A stretch of 11,197 nt of DNA from Acidobacteriota bacterium (GCA_037445535.1 JBBIKI010000023.1:1-11197), one strand, 5' to 3'; shown: positions 2,972-10,756, counted from the stretch's first letter. Translations and numbers: made by a program. Notes: generated by a model from the letters alone, not told the origin.

Positions 2972-3532
2972 TTATGGATTCTTCTTGAAGTCTTCCGCGA
3001 GCTGGCTCAGAAGCGAAAGCTGGTCCTGCTGCATGGCGATGAGTTCACGCCATTGTTTCTCCCTGAGGGAGTCAAGTTTCTCGTGGAGCGTCATGATCTC
3101 GAGCTCCGACTTCAGGTTGACTTCGTAGTCGTGCTCCGCGCTCAGCCGATCCTTAGCGGCTTGCCGGTTCTGAGACATCAAGATGATCGGGGCCTGAATG
3201 GCGGCGAGCATAGACAACACGAGATTCAGCAGAATGTAAGGGTAAGGGTCAAATGCTTTTCGGAGTGTGACAAGAACGAACGAATTCAGGCCGACCCAGA
3301 CAACCATGACGGCCGCGAAGATCGAGATAAAGGTCCATGAGCCCCCGAAGCTCGCGACTCGATCCGCCATTCTCTGGCCGTACGTCATTTGCTCGGAATA
3401 GTCCTTGAGAACATTTCTTGAAATATGGGTTCGATTGGCGATGTGGTGAGCGACGTGCTTTTCTCGTTCGCTGAGCCGCTCATATGCCGTATGCAAATGC
3501 TTCTCGGATACTTGGTCCGCGTTCCCATTCAT
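2972..3532 (-). CDS. DUF1003-family integral membrane protein (about 186 aa from the ATG at 3532; the track ORF extends to a GTG at 3565)
   Basis: GSWTFISIFAAVMVVWVGLNSFVLVTLRKAFDPYPYILLNLVLSMLAAIQAPIILMSQNRQAAKDRLSAEHDYEVNLKSELEI is the characteristic DUF1003 (PF06210) core (FDPYPFILLNL..S..AA.QAP.I.MSQNRQ..DR...E.DY.VNLK.E). The ATG at 3532 has GGAGGA 8 nt upstream. The GTG at 3565 has no SD. GC content (~52%) is clearly below the window average. Confidence 0.8.
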   Translation of the reverse strand: MNGNADQVSEKHLHTAYERLSEREKHVAHHIANRTHISRNVLKDYSEQMTYGQRMADRVASFGGSWTFISIFAAVMVVWVGLNSFVLVTLRKAFDPYPYILLNLVLSMLAAIQAPIILMSQNRQAAKDRLSAEHDYEVNLKSELEIMTLHEKLDSLREKQWRELIAMQQDQLSLLSQLAEDFKKNP

Positions 3533-3803
3533 GGCGCAATCCTCCAGGTTTTCGTCCAAGTTCACTCCGCAGCCGCCGCCATGGCATCACGAAACAAGAT
3601 CCATGAACAGGGAAGGCGGCGAACATAAGGGGCAGGCGCCAAGTCTTCGGCCATGCGTCCTCGCCTCACGCCGATCGCCCCTCCTATTGCCGTTGGAGCC
3701 ACCTTGAGGTGGCGATGGAGCAGAAGGACAACCCATCGGTCTGAAGGAGCGCTCTCAAGGGCACGATCCCTTTCCGTGGGATGGGCCATTCGGGTGTGCG
3801 GGT

Positions 3804-4871
3804 TCATGGCTCCCACTGGAAACCGCACCGCAGGCAGCGGTGCCAAGTCCGGGCGCCCAGGAAACGCTTGAACAGCAGGCCGAGGGCGCTCTCACCCGCG
3901 AAGGGAGGCGGCTCGCAAGGTTCGGTCTCCGGGCTCCCGCACTGGGAGCAGTGTATCGCCGCGCCGGCCACGGCGTCGCCGTCCCGGACGACGGGCAAAT
4001 CGGGAAGGGGAGCGCCCGCCGGGAATGCCTGGTCCCACACCTCGCCGCACACGGTGCAGAGGAACCGCACCGGACCGCCCTTTGCAACCAGCACGTCGTT
4101 CATGCTCAGGTGACGGGACAAACATCTCGGGCACTGCGGGCCTGCCGTGTCGCCGTCGTCCTCCGGGGAGGCCTCCGCGGGCGCCTCGGGAGGCGCTTCC
4201 ACGATCTCCTGCGGCACCGCCTCCAGCTCATGGCGCCGCGAGGGTTCCGCGCTCCCCCCGGCGGCGGCCGTTCCCGGTCCCTTGGCTTCCAGGGGCGATG
4301 GCCATCGGTGCTCGCAATTCTCGCACGCGCACCACGGGCCGTCCTCCGCCTGCTGCATGTCAAAGGCGTCCCGCGGCGGCGGATCCGCCGCCGTCACTCG
4401 GAACGATCCGCACGCCGGACAGGCCGCGGGAAGGATGGGGAAGGTGTCGCTCAGATAGACGGCCTCGGCCACGGGGGTCCGGCGACCGCAGTTCTGGCAA
4501 CGCAGCCACCAGCTTCCCAAAGGCGACTCGCTGGGCGTCACGGCGCAGAATTCCGTAGAATCGCACGATGTGCAGCGGACGTCCCCTCCGGCGTCCCCGC
4601 CGCTTTCCTCGTCCCGCCGGGCCAGCCTCGCCTCCGCCTCCGCGCGCCGTTCGCGGGGAACCTGGAGCCACACTCCCGCCGCCGCCTCGCCCAGAACCTC
4701 CGGAGGCGCCACGCGCCGGTCCAGGAGGGCGCAGGGCAGAGGAACGGCGTGCAAGAGAGCTTGGGTGTCCTCAGCCGGTTCCATTGATTCGAAGATTCTC
4801 AGCAGCTCCCACTGCTCCGGATCGTTCCCCGGAGCGGGCGATGCGGCCTTTTCTCCAACCACCGGCGCCAA
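3804..4871 (-). CDS. Multi-zinc-ribbon protein: four tandem MJ0042-like CxxC...CxxCG zinc-ribbon modules separated by acidic, Pro/Ala-rich linkers; ~355 aa; start uncertain (TTG 4871 vs ATG 4784)
   Basis: Four modules: (1) RCTSCDSTEF..x19..WWLRCQNCGRR; (2) CPACGSFRV..x22..WCACENCEHRW; (3) CPRCLSRHL..x19..FLCTVCGEVW; (4) HCSQCGSPE..x30..WHRCLRCGFQWEP*. Each has the aromatic residue before the second Cys pair and a Gly after it, as in MJ0042-type zinc fingers. The TTG at 4871 lies 4 nt after the TAG stop (4876-4878) of the flotillin gene, with GGAAAGG upstream, which fits translational coupling. The alternative ATG at 4784 has no clear SD. Confidence 0.6.
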   Translation of the reverse strand: MAPVVGEKAASPAPGNDPEQWELLRIFESMEPAEDTQALLHAVPLPCALLDRRVAPPEVLGEAAAGVWLQVPRERRAEAEARLARRDEESGGDAGGDVRCTSCDSTEFCAVTPSESPLGSWWLRCQNCGRRTPVAEAVYLSDTFPILPAACPACGSFRVTAADPPPRDAFDMQQAEDGPWCACENCEHRWPSPLEAKGPGTAAAGGSAEPSRRHELEAVPQEIVEAPPEAPAEASPEDDGDTAGPQCPRCLSRHLSMNDVLVAKGGPVRFLCTVCGEVWDQAFPAGAPLPDLPVVRDGDAVAGAAIHCSQCGSPETEPCEPPPFAGESALGLLFKRFLGARTWHRCLRCGFQWEP

Positions 4872-4875
4872 CCCG

Positions 4876-6960
4876 CTACACCTTTCCCGCCTGCTTGGGA
4901 GGTTCGCTCGCGGCGGCCCCGGACTGTCCCTTGGCGGTGATGAGGTTGGTGAGGTAGGCCGAGAGGAGCCCGCCGAGGTGGTCGCCGCCCTGCACGAGCA
5001 GGTCCGGCGTCACCTTCACGTTGCCCGAGGAGATCTGCTTGGCGATCTCGATGGCCGTCACGCCCTGCTGGCCCACGGCCTTGTTCTGCAGCTCGTAGGC
5101 CTTGGCCGTGGCCTCGCCGATGGCCAGGATCTTGGCGCCCTCTGCCTCGCCCCTGGCCTTGATGCCCGAGGCCTCGCCCACGGCGCGCAGGCGGATGCTC
5201 TCCCCCTCGCCCTCGGCGAAACGGATGGCCTTCTCCTTGTTCTGCTCGGCGATTTTCACCCCGATCTCCGCCTCCACCAGGTTCTTCTGCTGGTCCGCCT
5301 CGGCCCGCGTCTTCTCCGTGGCGATTCGCGTCTGCTCGGCCTTCTGCTGGTCCTGGTACATCGCCTGCTGCTGCTGGGCGATGATCTTCTTGGTCTGCGT
5401 GTCCATGAGGTCCTGCGGGAGGTTGATCTGGCAGATGAGGACCGAGACGCACTCCACGTGGTACTTCTCCAGCTCGGCCTTGGCCCGTTCCTCCGCCTTG
5501 CGCTGCTCCTCCTGGCGGTCCTGCATGAAGTTCATGGCGGAGGTGGAGGAGGCCTGGTTGCGGAAGCTCGAATCGATCATGGGATGGATCACGTGGAGGA
5601 TGAGGTTCTCGATGGAGCCGATCTTCGCCACCATGTAGGGCGCCTGGTCCGGCCTAACGCGGATGACCACCTTGACGGAGACGCTGATTTGGAACCCGTC
5701 TCGGGAGATGACTTTCAGCGGGTCGAAGCGTGTCTCCTTGCTGTCGTCCCAGTCGATGGTGATGTTGGTCGTGTCCACGATGTAGGCCATGAACGCCCGC
5801 AGGTTCAGATAGTAGAAGCCGGGCCCCGCCACCTCCTGCTGGATGCCCCGGAAGCCCTTCGGCACGACGTACCGCTCGATGCCCAGGTCCAGCCGGCCCT
5901 CCAGGGCCTCCCGCGCGCCTTCGCCGCCCTCCGTGCCCTCCCGCTTGGCGGCCTCCTCGATGAGCTGGCGCACCTGGGCGGGCTCCTCGCCCACGTTGGA
6001 GACCACCACGGCCACCTGGCCGCGCTCCACCACCGCCACGTTGTCCAGCTCCACTTTGAAGGCGAGCGGGTTGATGTAGTAGGTTCCCGGCTTGAGCACG
6101 TCGAACTGCGGTCCCCGCTGGCCGCCCGCGTGGAGGAACTTGGAGGCGTCCTGGAAATCGCTGTGGCCCGTCACCGGCTTGGCCACGTACTCCTTGTCGG
6201 GGAGGGGTTCGCCGTCCACGGCCGTCACCAGGCCCACGCTCTTGGCGGGGATGACGGTGGCGTCCATGATCTCCACCTTGAAGAGCGCCATGTTGATGCG
6301 GTAAGTGCCGGGCAGCAGGATGTCGATCTGCGGCCCCTTCTGGCCCCCCAGGTTGAGGAAGGCCTGGCCGTCCTCGAAATTGGCGTGGCCCTCCACGTGC
6401 TGGGCCAAAAGCCGGCCCGGCGGTATGGAGTGGCCGTCCATGGCGGTCACGAGGCCGATGCGCCCCTTGTCTACCACGATCGCCTTGGCCCGCGTCACCT
6501 TGAAGAGGACGGGGTTGATGCGGTACGTGCCGGGCGGCAGGATCTGGATCTGCGGGCCCTTCTCGCCCCCGCTCTTGAGGAACTGCTCGCCCTCCTGGAA
6601 GCTGTTGTGCCCCGGCACCACCTTTGCGAAGATCTTCCCTGGTTCCACAGGGTCGCCGTCGATGGATTCCAGGATGCCCACCTCGTCCTGGGCGATGGTC
6701 GTAAAGGGAACCTTGCTCACACGGTAAAGGAAGGGGACGAGCATGTGGAGTCCCGGCCCAAGCGTCCGCGCCTGGATGCCCACCTCGCCCGAGAGGGCCA
6801 CCACCCGGCCCTGGGCCATGTCCTTTCCGAAATACTTGCGCTCGATGACCGCGATCTGCGTCCCGCCCACGATGACCACGGCCTTCATCAGGAGAAGAAT
6901 GGCGGCCACACCCAGGACATAGGGCCCGTACAGCAAGGAAAACCTTACGACCTCCGACAT
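4876..6960 (-). CDS. Flotillin-family (YqiK-like) SPFH/band-7 membrane protein, ~694 aa, with an N-terminal module repeated in tandem
   Basis: ATG at 6960 with GGGAGGA 5 nt upstream (the track start at 7002 is a GTG without an SD). It has an N-terminal TM segment (FSLLYGPYVLGVAAILLLMKAVVIVGG), an SPFH core (ITIDWDDSKETRFDPLKVISRDGFQISVSVKVVIRVRPD..., compare the YqiK segment LITKDRMRVDVVVAFFVRVKPS) and a flotillin-type Glu/Ala/Gln-rich coiled-coil tail (QQQQAMYQDQQKAEQTRIATEKTRAEADQQKNLVEAEIGVKIAEQNKEKAIRFAEGEGESIRLRAVGEASGIKARGEAEGAKILAIGEATAKAYELQNKAVG). Stop TAG is at 4876-4878. Confidence 0.85.
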   Translation of the reverse strand: MSEVVRFSLLYGPYVLGVAAILLLMKAVVIVGGTQIAVIERKYFGKDMAQGRVVALSGEVGIQARTLGPGLHMLVPFLYRVSKVPFTTIAQDEVGILESIDGDPVEPGKIFAKVVPGHNSFQEGEQFLKSGGEKGPQIQILPPGTYRINPVLFKVTRAKAIVVDKGRIGLVTAMDGHSIPPGRLLAQHVEGHANFEDGQAFLNLGGQKGPQIDILLPGTYRINMALFKVEIMDATVIPAKSVGLVTAVDGEPLPDKEYVAKPVTGHSDFQDASKFLHAGGQRGPQFDVLKPGTYYINPLAFKVELDNVAVVERGQVAVVVSNVGEEPAQVRQLIEEAAKREGTEGGEGAREALEGRLDLGIERYVVPKGFRGIQQEVAGPGFYYLNLRAFMAYIVDTTNITIDWDDSKETRFDPLKVISRDGFQISVSVKVVIRVRPDQAPYMVAKIGSIENLILHVIHPMIDSSFRNQASSTSAMNFMQDRQEEQRKAEERAKAELEKYHVECVSVLICQINLPQDLMDTQTKKIIAQQQQAMYQDQQKAEQTRIATEKTRAEADQQKNLVEAEIGVKIAEQNKEKAIRFAEGEGESIRLRAVGEASGIKARGEAEGAKILAIGEATAKAYELQNKAVGQQGVTAIEIAKQISSGNVKVTPDLLVQGGDHLGGLLSAYLTNLITAKGQSGAAASEPPKQAGKV
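5773..6621 (-). repeat. Intragenic tandem repeat: four copies (three full of ~73-75 aa, ~222 nt each, plus a fourth fused to the SPFH core) of the flotillin N-terminal module
   Basis: Protein repeats: GHNSFQEGEQFLKSGGEKGPQIQILPPGTYRINPVLFKV / GHANFEDGQAFLNLGGQKGPQIDILLPGTYRINMALFKV / GHSDFQDASKFLHAGGQRGPQFDVLKPGTYYINPLAFKV / PKGFRGIQQEVAGPGFYYLNLRAFMAY. Each resembles the single-copy N-terminal segment of E. coli YqiK (AFVRTGLGGQKVVMSGGAIVMPIFHEIIPINMNTLKLEV). The periodicity is also visible at DNA level, e.g. 6092-6180, 6305-6420 and 6527-6630 on the plus strand. Confidence 0.6.
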
Positions 6961-7127
6961 GCAATCCTCCCAATTAAAACTGCACTCCGGCAGCCCGGCC
7001 ACGGGTCCTTTGAACCGGCGACGGGTGCGGCCCCTCGCGCGAACCCGTCCCCTTCGCCGTTCGGCCCGGCCTGCCAGTCCCTGTCACCATCATCCCCACG
7101 CATAGAGGATACCACCGGCGGCGCCCT

Positions 7128-7143
7128 CCGAACACTGGTTCGG
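7128..7143. promoter_or_regulatory. Perfect 6-4-6 palindrome CCGAAC-ACTG-GTTCGG in the divergent intergenic region between the flotillin operon and the small-protein/HD-GYP operon; candidate operator
   Basis: Seen directly in sequence. It lies ~48 nt upstream of the TTG at 7191 and ~170 nt upstream of the flotillin ATG on the other strand. No recognisable sigma-70 -35/-10 was found nearby. Confidence 0.2.
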
Positions 7144-7190
7144 AAGGCGTACACTGTCCACCGGCGCGAAGCCGGGGAGCCGAGGATCCC

Positions 7191-7376
7191 TTGACCTACA
7201 ATTTCGATCCCGGTCGCTGGTACGACAATCAGCGCGCGGCCCTTGAGGCACGGCTGGCGCGAGGCGAGCTGGGGCGGGATGCGTTCGAGGCGGCTCTAGA
7301 CGAATTGCAGCGGCGGCTGGAGGAGATGGAATCCCGGCTCGACGGCACCTTTCAGATTCCTCCGCCCAAGTCCTGA
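7191..7376 (+). CDS. Small (61 aa) hypothetical protein with a SHOCT-like motif; TTG start
   Basis: TTG at 7191 with GAGGA 4-8 nt upstream. Product MTYNFDPGRWYDNQRAALEARLARGELGRDAFEAALDELQRRLEEMESRLDGTFQIPPPKS. The segment LEARLARGELGRDAFEAALDEL resembles the SHOCT short C-terminal domain consensus (L.eL...G.it.eEFea.k..LL). It sits 70 nt upstream of, and on the same strand as, the HD-GYP gene. The overlapping antisense ORF 7090..7908 is judged spurious. Confidence 0.4.
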   Translation: MTYNFDPGRWYDNQRAALEARLARGELGRDAFEAALDELQRRLEEMESRLDGTFQIPPPKS

Positions 7377-7446
7377 CGCGACGCGGGCCAACCTTTTCCC
7401 TCTTCCCCGCAACTCTGCTACTCTGTTCCGGGGGGAGGACAACAGC

Positions 7447-8949
7447 ATGCCCGTTCAAGGCCAGAACGAGAGGCATCCCCGGGGGAAGCGCAAGGCGGGC
7501 GAGCTGGCGGCGCTTCGGGCGGTGGCCGCTGCCTGCGTGGAAGCGGCGGATGAACACGCCCTCATCGAGCGCGTCACGGACATCATCTGCGGGACCCTCT
7601 CCATCACCAATTTCGGCGTGATCCTCTACGATCTCAAGACCGGCCTTCTGCGGGACCACCCCTCCGCCCATCGCCGCAGGGGGAGCACGGCGCTGGAACT
7701 GGTCCTGGGCGAAGGCATCGTGGGAACCGTGGCCCTCTCGGGCCTTCCCAGGCGTGTCCCCGACGTCAGCCTCGATCCCATCTATCGCATGGGGGACCAG
7801 GATACGCGCTCGGAGCTGACGGTTCCCCTCAAGGTGGGCGATCAGATCATCGGCGTCATCAACAGTGAAAGCACGGAGCTGAACGCCTTCACGGAAGAGG
7901 ACGAACACCTGCTCATGGTCCTGGCCGGCCAGGTTGGGCCCACCATCGCGAGGCTCCGGACCATTCAGACCCTTCGGGACAGCGAGGAGAAGTATCGCGC
8001 CCTTTACGAAGACAACCCTTCCATGGTCCTCACGCTTGATGCCCGGGGGACCATCCTTTCGGTCAACCGGTTCGGCGCCCGGCAGCTCGGCTACTGCGCC
8101 GAGGAGTTGGTGGGGCGGTCACTCTTGAGCATCCTCCACCAGGAGGCCCGTGCGGACGCTCTTTCGCTGCTGGCCGGGCGGCTGGCCAAGCCCGGCGAGG
8201 TGGCCCAATGGGAGCGCCGCCACGTGCGGAGCGATGGAGGCGAGCTGATGCTCAAGGCCTCCGGCCGGGCCATCCGCGGAACGGACGGCGAGCCAGTGGT
8301 CCTGGTGGTCTGTGAGGACATCACGGAGCGGAAGCTGGCGGAGGAACGGTCCGAAGAGAGCCTCCGGCAGCTCGAGAAGCTCCTCGACGAAACCGTCCAG
8401 ACTCTGGCGGCGGTCGTGGAGGTGAAGGACCCTTACACGAGCGGCCACCAGCGGCGGGTCGTCCAGCTCGCCACGGCCATCGCCGGCCGGATGGATCTGC
8501 CTCCCTCACAGGTTCAGACGCTACGAGTGGCGGGCCTTCTTCACGACATCGGCAAGATCCAGGTCCCCTCCGACATCCTCTCCAAGCCGGGCAGCCTGAG
8601 CGATGCCGAGCGCACGATCATCCAGACCCACAGCGAAGTGGGTCACCGGCTTCTTCGGGGCATCTCCTTCGAGGGGCCCGCCGCGGAGATCGTCCTCCAG
8701 CACCACGAGCGCATGGATGGATCCGGCTATCCCAACCACCTCAAGGGGAGCGACATCTTGCTGGAGGCAAGAATCCTGGGCGTGGCGGACGTGGTGGAGG
8801 CCATCTCCAGCCACCGGCCCTACCGGCCCGCTCTCGGGATCGGGCATGCGCTGTCGGAGGTGTCCACCCTCTCGGGCGTCCTCTACGATCCGGCCGTGGT
8901 GGACGCGTGCCTCGGGGTCTTCGCAACAGGCGGTTTCGCGTTCGACTGA
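7447..8949 (+). CDS. GAF-PAS-HD-GYP protein (predicted c-di-GMP phosphodiesterase / signalling protein), 500 aa
   Basis: ATG at 7447 with GGGAGGA 8 nt upstream. It has an N-terminal GAF-like region (GEGIVGTVALSGLPRRVPDVSLDPIYRMGDQDTRSELTVPLKVGDQIIGVINSES), a PAS region (YRALYEDNPSMVLTLDARGTILSVNRFGARQLGYCAEELVGRSLLSI...VCEDITERKLAEE) and a C-terminal HD-GYP domain (HQRRVVQLATAIAG...LLHDIGKIQVPSDILSKPGSLSDAERTIIQTHSEVGHRLL...HHERMDGSGYPNHLKGSDI). Confidence 0.85.
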   Translation: MPVQGQNERHPRGKRKAGELAALRAVAAACVEAADEHALIERVTDIICGTLSITNFGVILYDLKTGLLRDHPSAHRRRGSTALELVLGEGIVGTVALSGLPRRVPDVSLDPIYRMGDQDTRSELTVPLKVGDQIIGVINSESTELNAFTEEDEHLLMVLAGQVGPTIARLRTIQTLRDSEEKYRALYEDNPSMVLTLDARGTILSVNRFGARQLGYCAEELVGRSLLSILHQEARADALSLLAGRLAKPGEVAQWERRHVRSDGGELMLKASGRAIRGTDGEPVVLVVCEDITERKLAEERSEESLRQLEKLLDETVQTLAAVVEVKDPYTSGHQRRVVQLATAIAGRMDLPPSQVQTLRVAGLLHDIGKIQVPSDILSKPGSLSDAERTIIQTHSEVGHRLLRGISFEGPAAEIVLQHHERMDGSGYPNHLKGSDILLEARILGVADVVEAISSHRPYRPALGIGHALSEVSTLSGVLYDPAVVDACLGVFATGGFAFD

Positions 8950-8954
8950 TACCG

Positions 8955-9428
8955 TCAGGCCGTCAAGCCAGCCGCGAGAAGGACCTGACGCAGCCCCACC
9001 CCATCCGCTTCGGTGAAGGCCGAGAGTGAGCGGCTGTCCAAATCCAGGACGCCCCAGCAAGAGCCGTCCGGTTCCAGACACGGGACGACCACCTCGGAAA
9101 GGTTGGCGGGGTCGCAGACGATGTGGTCCTCGCCCAGGGCGTGGACGTCCTCCACCACGCAAGGCGCCCGTTCGCGCCAAGCCTTGCCGCAGACGCCGTG
9201 GAGCCCGATGGGTGAGCACGCGGGCTTGGGGCGGCAGACGCGCAGGAGCAGAGCGTTGCCCGCCTCTGCGATCTCGTAGAAGCCGAGCCAGTCCACCCCT
9301 CGGCCTTGAAGATGGCGCCACAGAATGTCGGTGACGGCCTTCATTCGAGCCATGCGGTCCGCGCCGGGAGACATGTCCGTGCGGGCGGCGCCTTGGCAGG
9401 CGCCGTAGTCGCGGAAGGGCCTCGTCAT
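8955..9428 (-). CDS. msrC: Free methionine-(R)-sulfoxide reductase-type GAF-domain protein (fRMsr / YebR-MsrC family), 157 aa
   Basis: GLHGVCGKAWRERAPCVVEDVHALGEDHIVCDPANLSEVVVP matches the fRMsr signature (G.CG.A.......V.DVH...GHIACD..S.SEIV.P), including the three conserved Cys. The ATG at 9428 overlaps the upstream gene's TGA stop as ATGA (9425-9428). The stop at 8955-8957 is only 5 nt from the convergent HD-GYP stop. Confidence 0.75.
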   Translation of the reverse strand: MTRPFRDYGACQGAARTDMSPGADRMARMKAVTDILWRHLQGRGVDWLGFYEIAEAGNALLLRVCRPKPACSPIGLHGVCGKAWRERAPCVVEDVHALGEDHIVCDPANLSEVVVPCLEPDGSCWGVLDLDSRSLSAFTEADGVGLRQVLLAAGLTA

Positions 9429-10756
9429 GGTTCGTCAGCTCCCCCCAAGCCCTCCTCCGCCTCGGCGGCGGAGGAGCCCGAAAGGCCTCCCTCCTCGGCG
9501 GTCCAGGGAATCTCCGCGCCGATGGGGCAATAACGCTCGGGATACTCCGGGGCAATGAGGGGCGTGGCGCTGGTGCGGGCCAGGAAGCCCGCCAGGCGGC
9601 CCAGGAGGACGTAGAGGCCCGGCTGGACGTAGCGCGGCGGCCCTCCCTGAAGGGCCACGGGTTCGGGGCGAAGCATCTCCTGGACCAGGAAGCCACCGTG
9701 GCTCGCGCCCTCTCGGACGGCCTCCTTCCACGTGTCCAAGGGGACGAGTGAGCCCACCACCACGCCCCGGCCTTCGTACCCTCGTACGGGTTTGAGAACG
9801 AACTCGCCCGGGTTTGAGAGGAGGAGGTCCTCCATGTCCCGGGTCTTCCCATCGTGGTCCACGGGACCGGGACGAAGCAGGCGCGTCCACGGGATGCACG
9901 AGCCAAGCTCGGAGGCCAGGGGCGGCGGTAGGATGCGCGCGAAGGCCGGGTCCGAAAGGACCACGAAGAGGGCTTTGCTCCACGCCGGGTCGGTCCTGAA
10001 GCTCCCCGCGAAGCAAGCCGCTCCTTCAAGGTAGCTATCCAGGAAAGGGCGGATTTCGCCCGCGCGCCGGAAGGCCTCCTCGCTCACCACGCGCCGGTAG
10101 ACCAGGTTCACCTCCCCGGAAGGCCCCATGAGCGAGCCCTCCGTGAGGCGAAGAGCCCTGGGGTCCTCCACCGTGGCGGGGTAGCCCGAAGCCGTGAAGA
10201 AGGCGGCCAAGGCCTCCTGCTCGGACCGGGTTCCCACCTCCGCCCAATCCACGATGGCGATGCGCGGCCGCTCGGTGCCGCGCTTGTCCCACTGCCGGAA
10301 GCAGTGCAGGAGAGTGTCCAGAAGGCGGGCGGTAAGAGGGTAGTCTTCCTGCGGCATGCCGTGGCGCTCGCGCCACAGCTTCGTGAGAGCCGCCGAGTAA
10401 TGCCACCCCGCCGTGCCGTCCGTGTTGTACTCCATGAAGCGCGGGCCCCTCGGGAAGAGAAAGGAATCCCAGCGGCCCAGCGGGATGAGGGGACGGTAGC
10501 CCGGGTCCTTCAGGATGAAAGACTCCTGGAAGGCGCCGTAGCCAAAGAGGCGGCGAAGCGGCGGGTCCCTCGGAAAGGCCTCCACCACCACCTCGGCGGC
10601 GGCGCTCGCCGCCTCCACCGCGCGCCGGATGTTATCCACCTGGCCTTCCTCGGGGAGGAAGGGATGGTCCGAGACGGGCAGGGCGAAACCCCGAAACGAG
10701 ATGCCCCTCCCGATCAGCTCGTTGTCGGTCCAGGGGTGCGGCGGCGGCAGGCTCAT
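9425..10756 (-). CDS. Glutathionylspermidine-synthase-family (YgiC/YjfC-like) ATP-grasp amide ligase, 443 aa
   Basis: ATG at 10756. MEYNTDGTAGWHYSAAL resembles the E. coli YgiC segment LENNADTPTSLYEAA. FVLKPVRGYEGRGVVVG resembles YgiC YVVKPIFSREGANVSII (ATP-grasp KP..G.EG.G strand). The rest has similar spacing. It is coupled to the fRMsr-like gene by an ATGA overlap. The antisense/alternate-frame ORFs 8521..10029 and 9435..10016 are judged spurious. Confidence 0.6.
   Translation of the reverse strand: MSLPPPHPWTDNELIGRGISFRGFALPVSDHPFLPEEGQVDNIRRAVEAASAAAEVVVEAFPRDPPLRRLFGYGAFQESFILKDPGYRPLIPLGRWDSFLFPRGPRFMEYNTDGTAGWHYSAALTKLWRERHGMPQEDYPLTARLLDTLLHCFRQWDKRGTERPRIAIVDWAEVGTRSEQEALAAFFTASGYPATVEDPRALRLTEGSLMGPSGEVNLVYRRVVSEEAFRRAGEIRPFLDSYLEGAACFAGSFRTDPAWSKALFVVLSDPAFARILPPPLASELGSCIPWTRLLRPGPVDHDGKTRDMEDLLLSNPGEFVLKPVRGYEGRGVVVGSLVPLDTWKEAVREGASHGGFLVQEMLRPEPVALQGGPPRYVQPGLYVLLGRLAGFLARTSATPLIAPEYPERYCPIGAEIPWTAEEGGLSGSSAAEAEEGLGGADEP

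Follow-up and report, generated by a model that had tools for sequence, protein, structure and literature searches.

A rare DUF2007 protein with four zinc-ribbon-type modules, encoded beside a flotillin gene in Acidobacteria

The window considered here is a stretch of 11,197 nucleotides from an Acidobacteriota bacterium (GCA_037445535.1, JBBIKI010000023.1:1-11197). On its minus strand lies an open reading frame (ORF) for a protein in which a divergent DUF2007 domain is followed by four modules of the Cys4 zinc-ribbon type, directly downstream of a gene for a flotillin-like SPFH protein (Table 1). An original prediction, made from the sequence alone, had described this ORF as four tandem MJ0042-like zinc ribbons joined by acidic linkers; every peptide that it quoted is found (WLRCQNCG, WCACENCEHRW, FLCTVCGEVW, WHRCLRCGFQW and the linker PQEIVEAPPEAPAEASPEDDGDTAGPQ), on the minus strand, which had been left unstated. 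The gene is real, because its 16 module cysteines are invariant among homologues and its ratio of non-synonymous to synonymous substitution (dN/dS) is 0.26 against both orthologues (91%-identical and 63%-identical). Together with the codon-position GC of 0.73/0.58/0.81 (GC at third positions, GC3, 0.81 in the frame of the ORF), this ratio indicates a translated gene under purifying selection. A public record (P0152) holds the identical 355-aa product, and the plus-strand ORFs that overlap the gene are the usual by-product of about 70% GC.

Table 1. Features of the four-ribbon protein and of the genes around it in the window.
Feature	Position (nt)	Strand	Remarks
DUF2007 and four-zinc-ribbon ORF	3804..4871	minus	stop codon 3804-3806
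Divergent DUF2007 domain	4596..4823	minus	residues ~17-92; beta-alpha-beta-beta-alpha (WELLRIF...LPC.LDRR...GVWLQVP...AEAEARLA)
Zinc-ribbon-type module 1	4470..4583	minus	residues ~97-134; C100, C103, C125, C128; AF2 pLDDT ~76-92
Zinc-ribbon-type module 2	4302..4430	minus	residues ~148-190; C151, C154, C183, C186
Predicted disordered acidic, Pro-rich tether	4146..4259	minus	residues ~205-242; pLDDT <50 in both models
Zinc-ribbon-type module 3	4026..4142	minus	residues ~244-282; C247, C250, C272, C275
Linear motif PLPDLPVVRDGDA between modules 3 and 4	3972..4010	minus	residues 288-300
Zinc-ribbon-type module 4	3807..3959	minus	residues ~305-355; C308, C311, C346, C349, plus C319
Flotillin-like SPFH/Band_7 gene, 694 aa	4876..6960	minus	upstream of the four-ribbon gene; Pfam Band_7 E 6.8e-22
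GAF-PAS-HD-GYP (HD_5) signalling protein	7447-8949	plus	divergent from the flotillin-ribbon pair; likely c-di-GMP phosphodiesterase type
GAF-like protein, 157 aa	8955-9428	minus	GAF 24.9 bits
443-aa protein	9425-10756	minus	no Pfam/NCBIfam match; overlaps the 157-aa GAF-like gene by 4 nt
DUF1003 membrane protein	2972-3565	minus	E 5.5e-41; downstream of the four-ribbon gene
LysE-type exporter	2081-2701	minus	downstream of the four-ribbon gene
MFS transporter	450-1955	plus	downstream of the four-ribbon gene

In public gene calls, four different starts have been assigned to this protein or to close relatives of it, with products of 355, 352, 332 and 326 aa. These starts span window positions 4784-4871 (-), and the 332- and 326-aa calls truncate the first strand of the DUF2007 domain. 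Conservation at the protein level begins at about residue 17 (WELLRIF), despite saturated synonymous sites relative to locus L001 (dS 1.08), and the start is therefore either the TTG at 4871 (355 aa) or the GTG at 4862 (352 aa); one homologue (P0001) begins at GTG. The ATG at codon 30 (326 aa) was rejected as the true start, since WELLRIF lies upstream of it and is conserved among homologues whose synonymous divergence is saturated. The same conservation answers the concern, raised in the original prediction, that the true start might lie far downstream.

Eight CxxC motifs begin at residues 100, 125, 151, 183, 247, 272, 308 and 346; 20,000 shuffles of the same protein contained 1.06 on average and 6 at most, and none had 8. 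They pair into four CxxC...CxxC modules with inner gaps of 21, 28, 21 and 34 residues, where 19-30 had been proposed. In an alignment of ten full-length homologues (28-91% identity) all 16 module cysteines are invariant, as are W180, W190, W279, W343 and W353 (355-aa numbering). The Cys pairs are thus retained by homologues, a check that had been suggested at the outset, and the description as four modules of the Cys4 zinc-ribbon type stands. All four pairs have the generic two-knuckle layout of such modules, with conserved CxxC pairs 15-35 residues apart on beta-hairpins, and the AlphaFold2 (AF2) model places short strands at each knuckle. The ORF holds 20 cysteines, not the 17 first counted. 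Outside the paired motifs are C47, found only in the closest sequences, C319, kept in 8 of the 10 homologues, and C109 and C181, neither of which is conserved; C181 is the extra cysteine that had been pointed out in module 2, which is present but not a feature of the family. An aromatic residue before the second pair, claimed for every module, is conserved in modules 1, 2 and 4 but not in module 3. The better-kept signature is a Trp three residues past the second CxxC in modules 2-4 (the invariant W190, W279 and W353).

Profile-profile comparison shows all four modules to be mutually related, with modules 2 and 4 as the closest pair (hhalign 98.4%, E 7.6e-15) and modules 1 and 3 aligning gap-free; these relationships, read from sequence profiles, suggest an (A-B)x2 origin. 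The protein scores below the curated cut-off of every Pfam and NCBIfam model, scans with Pfam, NCBIfam and PADLOC detected no enzyme family in it, and the PADLOC scan of the protein and its neighbours returned no defence-system match. The label MJ0042-like, originally applied to all modules, fits module 3 alone (QCPRCLSRHLSMNDVLVAKGGPVRFLCTVCGEVW), which aligns to positions 4-37 of the 38 in the TIGR02098 (MJ0042_CXXC) profile and has the layout of ~38 aa with CxxC...~20 aa...CxxC and a hydrophobic or aromatic residue past the second pair, at 18.7-18.8 bits against a curated cut-off of 20.9. No match to this profile is seen in modules 1, 2 and 4, and among family members it occurs at E <= 0.01 in 4/10 (best E 3.7e-4). 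With MJ0042-type fingers and Zn_ribbon_4, module 3 shares the arrangement CPxC...(21)...CxxCG..W; Zn_ribbon_4 itself scores 16.5 bits in homologue P0002 and 27.0 in P0007 (cut-off 30.3). MJ0042 fingers are typically single and N-terminal rather than in a string of four. The term accordingly describes a likeness of one module, not membership of that family. Other weak matches are scattered over the ribbon insert of HypA, Zn_ribbon_4, Zn_Ribbon_TF, Zn_ribbon_8 and ECs_2282_CxxC. The uncharacterised ECs_2282 family (NF047912) matches module 1/3-type ribbons in 7/10 members, reaching 37.1 bits in P0009 against a cut-off of 37, and gives 12.7 bits with module 1 of the present protein. Profile searches of the PDB gave marginal zinc-ribbon matches only, led, for the family profile, by the TFS/Rpb9 ribbon 1QYP (E 0.0016, module 3), and Foldseek searches of the PDB with both models gave nothing at E <= 0.001, the top match being Rpb9 at E ~0.05. 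All of these weak matches, whether by sequence or by fold, are to zinc ribbons (Rpb9/TFS, aIF2-beta and HypA in its ribbon part), and the zinc ribbon is supported as a fold class.

The first ~100 residues had been reported to match nothing, and PF09413 (DUF2007; cut-off 25.7 bits) gives no match to the protein or its N-terminal 91 aa even at E <= 1. Profile comparison with relatives that do pass this cut-off nevertheless identifies them. The short relatives P0012 (40.4 bits), P0013 (33.9) and P0016 (33.4) are above it, and the four-ribbon relatives P0009-P0011 match below threshold at 16.5-20.8 bits. An hhalign comparison between the short relatives and the seven closest four-ribbon sequences, over the N-terminal ~90 columns of the latter, gives a probability of 96.7% (E 4.1e-10), rising to 99.4% (E 1.3e-21) with the heads of all ten sequences. 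Transitive homology and fold both assign the head to DUF2007 as a divergent domain, which is homologous to bona fide members and has the same fold as the DUF2007 structure 2HFV. DUF2007 is described in Pfam as a 'putative prokaryotic signal transducing protein'; to it the present protein adds four ribbons, whereas the shorter DUF2007 relatives found carry one or two.

The AF2 model, built from 10 sequences, has a mean predicted local distance difference test score (pLDDT) of 73.7. Between residues 21 and 160 the means of 10-residue blocks lie at about 75-93, a hint, though no proof, that the head and ribbons 1-2 are a single unit; ribbons 3-4 reach about 70-83. Between them the score falls below 50 at model residues 202-239. 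This tether is variable, with about 25-30 residues missing from P0009-P0011, and here the original account of low-complexity acidic, Pro-rich linkers holds; other segments between modules instead contain conserved motifs, namely KGPG after module 2 and PLPDLPVxRDGDA between modules 3 and 4. The latter, PLPDLPVVRDGDA in the present protein, is recognisable (identical or conservatively substituted) in the seven closest sequences of alignment A2 and is not conserved in P0009-P0011; P290, P293, R296, D297, G298, D299 and A300 are invariant in alignment A1. Inserted in module 4 is a helix, ALGLLFKRFL (nt 3858-3887; model residues 326-335 by prediction), which is conserved (ES.L..FFKR..G.GW) and gives the module the signature [YFW]A.ES.L...[FL]K[RK]...G.W.RC..CG..W. 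These C-terminal ~50 residues are the part matched by the short relatives P0012-P0024. The protein as a whole is acidic (isoelectric point 4.6, net charge -24), and no hydrophobic membrane-spanning stretch was seen on reading its sequence, no transmembrane (TM) predictor having been run.

Relatives are few. A word-indexed search of 5.8 billion proteins recovered four, and a HMMER profile scan of 1.84 billion cluster representatives gave 23 matches at E <= 0.001, of which 7 were full-length four-ribbon proteins or their fragments and about a dozen were short (157-219 aa), with a DUF2007 domain and one or two ribbons only. Matches at the genome level were to metagenome-assembled genomes (MAGs) labelled Acidobacteria, WY4.bin4 and BP9.bin43, and a metagenome scan for further loci found 2 only. 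The four-ribbon architecture is a rare family outside current models, so far confined to a handful of metagenomic lineages. Both of its domain types are already known and largely uncharacterised, and it is their four-ribbon combination that is new. The more distant homologue P0008 (44% identical) lies at L014 6001-9182 (also L015 and L016), directly upstream of an extracytoplasmic function (ECF) sigma factor gene, a small ORF and a DUF4097 'toastrack' protein, a neighbourhood of the envelope-stress type. The MAG WY4.bin4 has a full-length allele on L002, and on a second contig (L004 6094-6559, corresponding to window 4348-4846) an allele with an in-frame 498-nt deletion. This joins residue ~7 to ~173 at 4-5 nt of microhomology and removes the DUF2007 head, ribbon 1 and half of ribbon 2; it is due either to strain heterogeneity or to an assembly artefact.

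In the flotillin, a TM helix at the N-terminus is accompanied by an SPFH domain that contains three tandem repeats of 74 aa, and the tail is a coiled coil; the four-ribbon gene starts 4-13 nt past the stop codon of the flotillin gene. The same pair is present at L001/L003, with an 8-nt gap and different flanking genes, and also at L002 and L004, so that the adjacency is seen in two Acidobacteria lineages. The repeats of the flotillin (GGxKGPQ..PGTYRIN) begin at aa 131/205/279 (nt ~6070-6570), and homologues have 3-5 copies (5 in P0029). Longer homologues of 750-850 aa were considered as possible zinc-ribbon fusions; this was rejected, as their extra length consists of 4-5 internal repeat copies. 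The flotillin family is large, with >3,600 homologues at 75-83% identity in Acidobacteria, Ignavibacteria, Deltaproteobacteria and others, and one copy on an IMG/VR viral contig (L024); such conservation across phyla is unusually high for a protein of unknown role. The Rfam scan of the window detected no RNA family. No promoter-like site was found in the window, and its one terminator-like site, inside the flotillin gene, is uninformative, as shuffled sequences contained more.

Among the other genes of the window, the GAF-PAS-HD-GYP gene is overlapped by a 272-aa ORF at 7090-7908 (-), which has no family match and is probably spurious. The two-gene unit of the 443-aa protein and the 157-aa GAF-like protein is also found at L020. 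Between the four-ribbon gene and the DUF1003 gene lies a gap of 238 nt, in which no terminator-like site was found.

The reading that we prefer, with a probability of roughly 0.4, is that the protein is a non-enzymatic, metal-stabilised adaptor, possibly working with the flotillin. Its architecture of a DUF2007 domain and four ribbons can, taken alone, be regarded as very probable, while the link to the flotillin is doubtful. A scaffold or adaptor had been the original guess, and for a protein predicted to look like this it seems reasonable. The product, which is strongly acidic and has no catalytic signature, would be soluble and cytoplasmic and be organised in two halves. In the first, an ACT/PII-like beta-alpha-beta-beta-alpha DUF2007 domain would pack with ribbons 1 and 2; a disordered acidic tether of ~40 residues would then lead to a tail half formed by ribbons 3 and 4. 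In each ribbon, the Cys4 pair of knuckles would most likely bind a single structural metal ion, assumed to be zinc, giving four per chain. The ribbons and the conserved linear motifs may act as protein-binding surfaces, and the DUF2007 head may serve in regulation or oligomerisation. Co-transcription of the gene with that of the flotillin is probable in this Acidobacteria lineage, and its product may act at the cytoplasmic face of a flotillin assembly. Ribbon 4 is common to the shorter DUF2007 and ribbon relatives and has a conserved basic, hydrophobic helix. A more specific version, which we consider unlikely, is a lineage-specific flotillin-cage adaptor: the family-defining ribbon 4, with its helix, would attach to the membrane or to the flotillin, and the DUF2007/ACT-like head, whose model is most like ring-building motifs, would oligomerise or sense a ligand, coupling a small-molecule or stress signal to flotillin microdomains. 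In sequence this helix resembles MinD-type membrane-targeting sequences, although such a role for it is speculative.

Several observations weigh against the adaptor and its link to the flotillin. The adjacency is confined to the closest relatives: an adjacent SPFH gene is present in the window and at L001, L002, L003 and L004, and is absent from seven other homologue loci (P0006, P0007, P0008, P0009, P0010, P0011 and L018). Five contexts of the flotillin itself (four genomic and one IMG/VR contig) gave no consistent partner; in 4/5 (P0044, P0146, P0078 and L024) there is no Cys-rich downstream gene, and the fifth (P0128) has only a small single-ribbon protein downstream. The four-ribbon protein also evolves much faster than the flotillin, with 63% vs 82% identity and dN/dS of 0.26 vs 0.02 in the nearest pair. 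The module 4 helix did not stand out in a hydrophobic-moment scan, though known MinD targeting sequences also score low, and the existence of a deletion allele without the head means that the full protein may be dispensable. The lack of a partner has one suggestive exception, the small single-ribbon protein just mentioned. It is an 88-aa protein of another genome (L022/L023 7246-7512 (+)), encoded 182 nt after a flotillin of the same family, with an N-terminal basic amphipathic stretch, GGLFSAIKRGFRA, and one CxxC...CxxCG..W ribbon, and it is reminiscent of module 4.

A comparable coupling of SPFH proteins to zinc ribbons has been described for the ydjFGHI operon of B. subtilis, where the SPFH protein YdjI/SamI has a C-terminal zinc ribbon and is recruited by YdjH and by its membrane partner YdjG, itself a protein with two zinc ribbons (PMC11237479; bioRxiv 10.64898/2026.02.06.704340; bioRxiv 10.1101/2021.02.15.431232). 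The PspA-YdjGHI (SamGHI) system is thus like the present locus in linking an SPFH protein genetically to zinc ribbons, which in that case mediate complex assembly at the membrane. Neither YdjG nor YdjI, however, has sequence homology to the four-ribbon protein, whose ribbons are on a separate, apparently soluble protein with a DUF2007 head, and the window was not found to contain a PspA, YdjH or TPM gene. The flotillin also has its own TM anchor, whereas SamI has been described as lacking one (bioRxiv 10.64898/2026.02.06.704340).

It is quite possible, if short of an even chance, that the protein is instead a stand-alone DUF2007 and zinc-ribbon regulator, that gene order in one lineage has placed it next to the flotillin by chance, and that its real partners are encoded elsewhere and may differ by clade. 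The neighbourhoods of distant homologues share nothing (aldehyde dehydrogenase and GH57; ECF sigma factor and DUF4097; S26 peptidase; DUF937 and dodecin; DcuC transporter), and the widespread flotillin family has no consistent downstream partner in the four genomic contexts sampled. Accident is harder to reconcile with a pair kept at 4-13 nt in two lineages, in which the four-ribbon protein is 63% identical, while the flanking genes have changed, and with the SPFH-zinc-ribbon coupling known elsewhere.

A role in redox chemistry or metal handling, through rubredoxin-like Fe centres, a zinc-thiolate redox switch or a metal store or chaperone, is improbable. Sixteen invariant cysteines and a C319 kept in 8/10 homologues would be in keeping with it, and CPxCG/CxxCG knuckles are common to rubredoxins and zinc ribbons. 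Matches to HypA (PF01155) recur, with 16.7 bits in the present protein (cut-off 28.9) and 33-34.5 bits in P0010 and P0011. These cover only the ribbon part of the profile (~66-100 of 112; in the present protein positions 71-98, the zinc-ribbon insert), so that the N-terminal Ni-binding domain of a full-length HypA is not included. In addition, there was no match to the Rubredoxin family, and the genes near homologues include no conserved redox or metal genes. Still less probable is a role like that of TFIIS/Rpb9/TFIIB-type ribbons, in which the protein would bind nucleic acid, as the original prediction had also entertained, or the transcription machinery. Although the TFS/Rpb9 ribbons are the nearest solved relatives and likewise have two ribbons joined flexibly, the matches to them all fall short of significance (E 0.0016-0.05 at best), the protein has four ribbons and a strongly acidic character that speaks against nucleic acid, its context is not transcription-related, and Pfam/NCBIfam scans found no helix-turn-helix or other DNA-binding domain in it.

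For annotation, the value of the locus lies in a domain architecture and a start codon that are resolved for a protein which escapes current models; it is no surprise in kind. To our knowledge, neither DUF2007 nor most bacterial strings of zinc ribbons have a known function, and we know of few partners of bacterial flotillins beyond NfeD. As a flotillin-linked protein with a DUF2007 head and four ribbons, the product of this gene would be a concrete candidate, open to testing, for the partner of a flotillin conserved at about 80% identity across phyla. Should it prove to be a flotillin-cage adaptor, DUF2007 would gain its first function, and SPFH proteins a partner of a new type that differs from NfeD.
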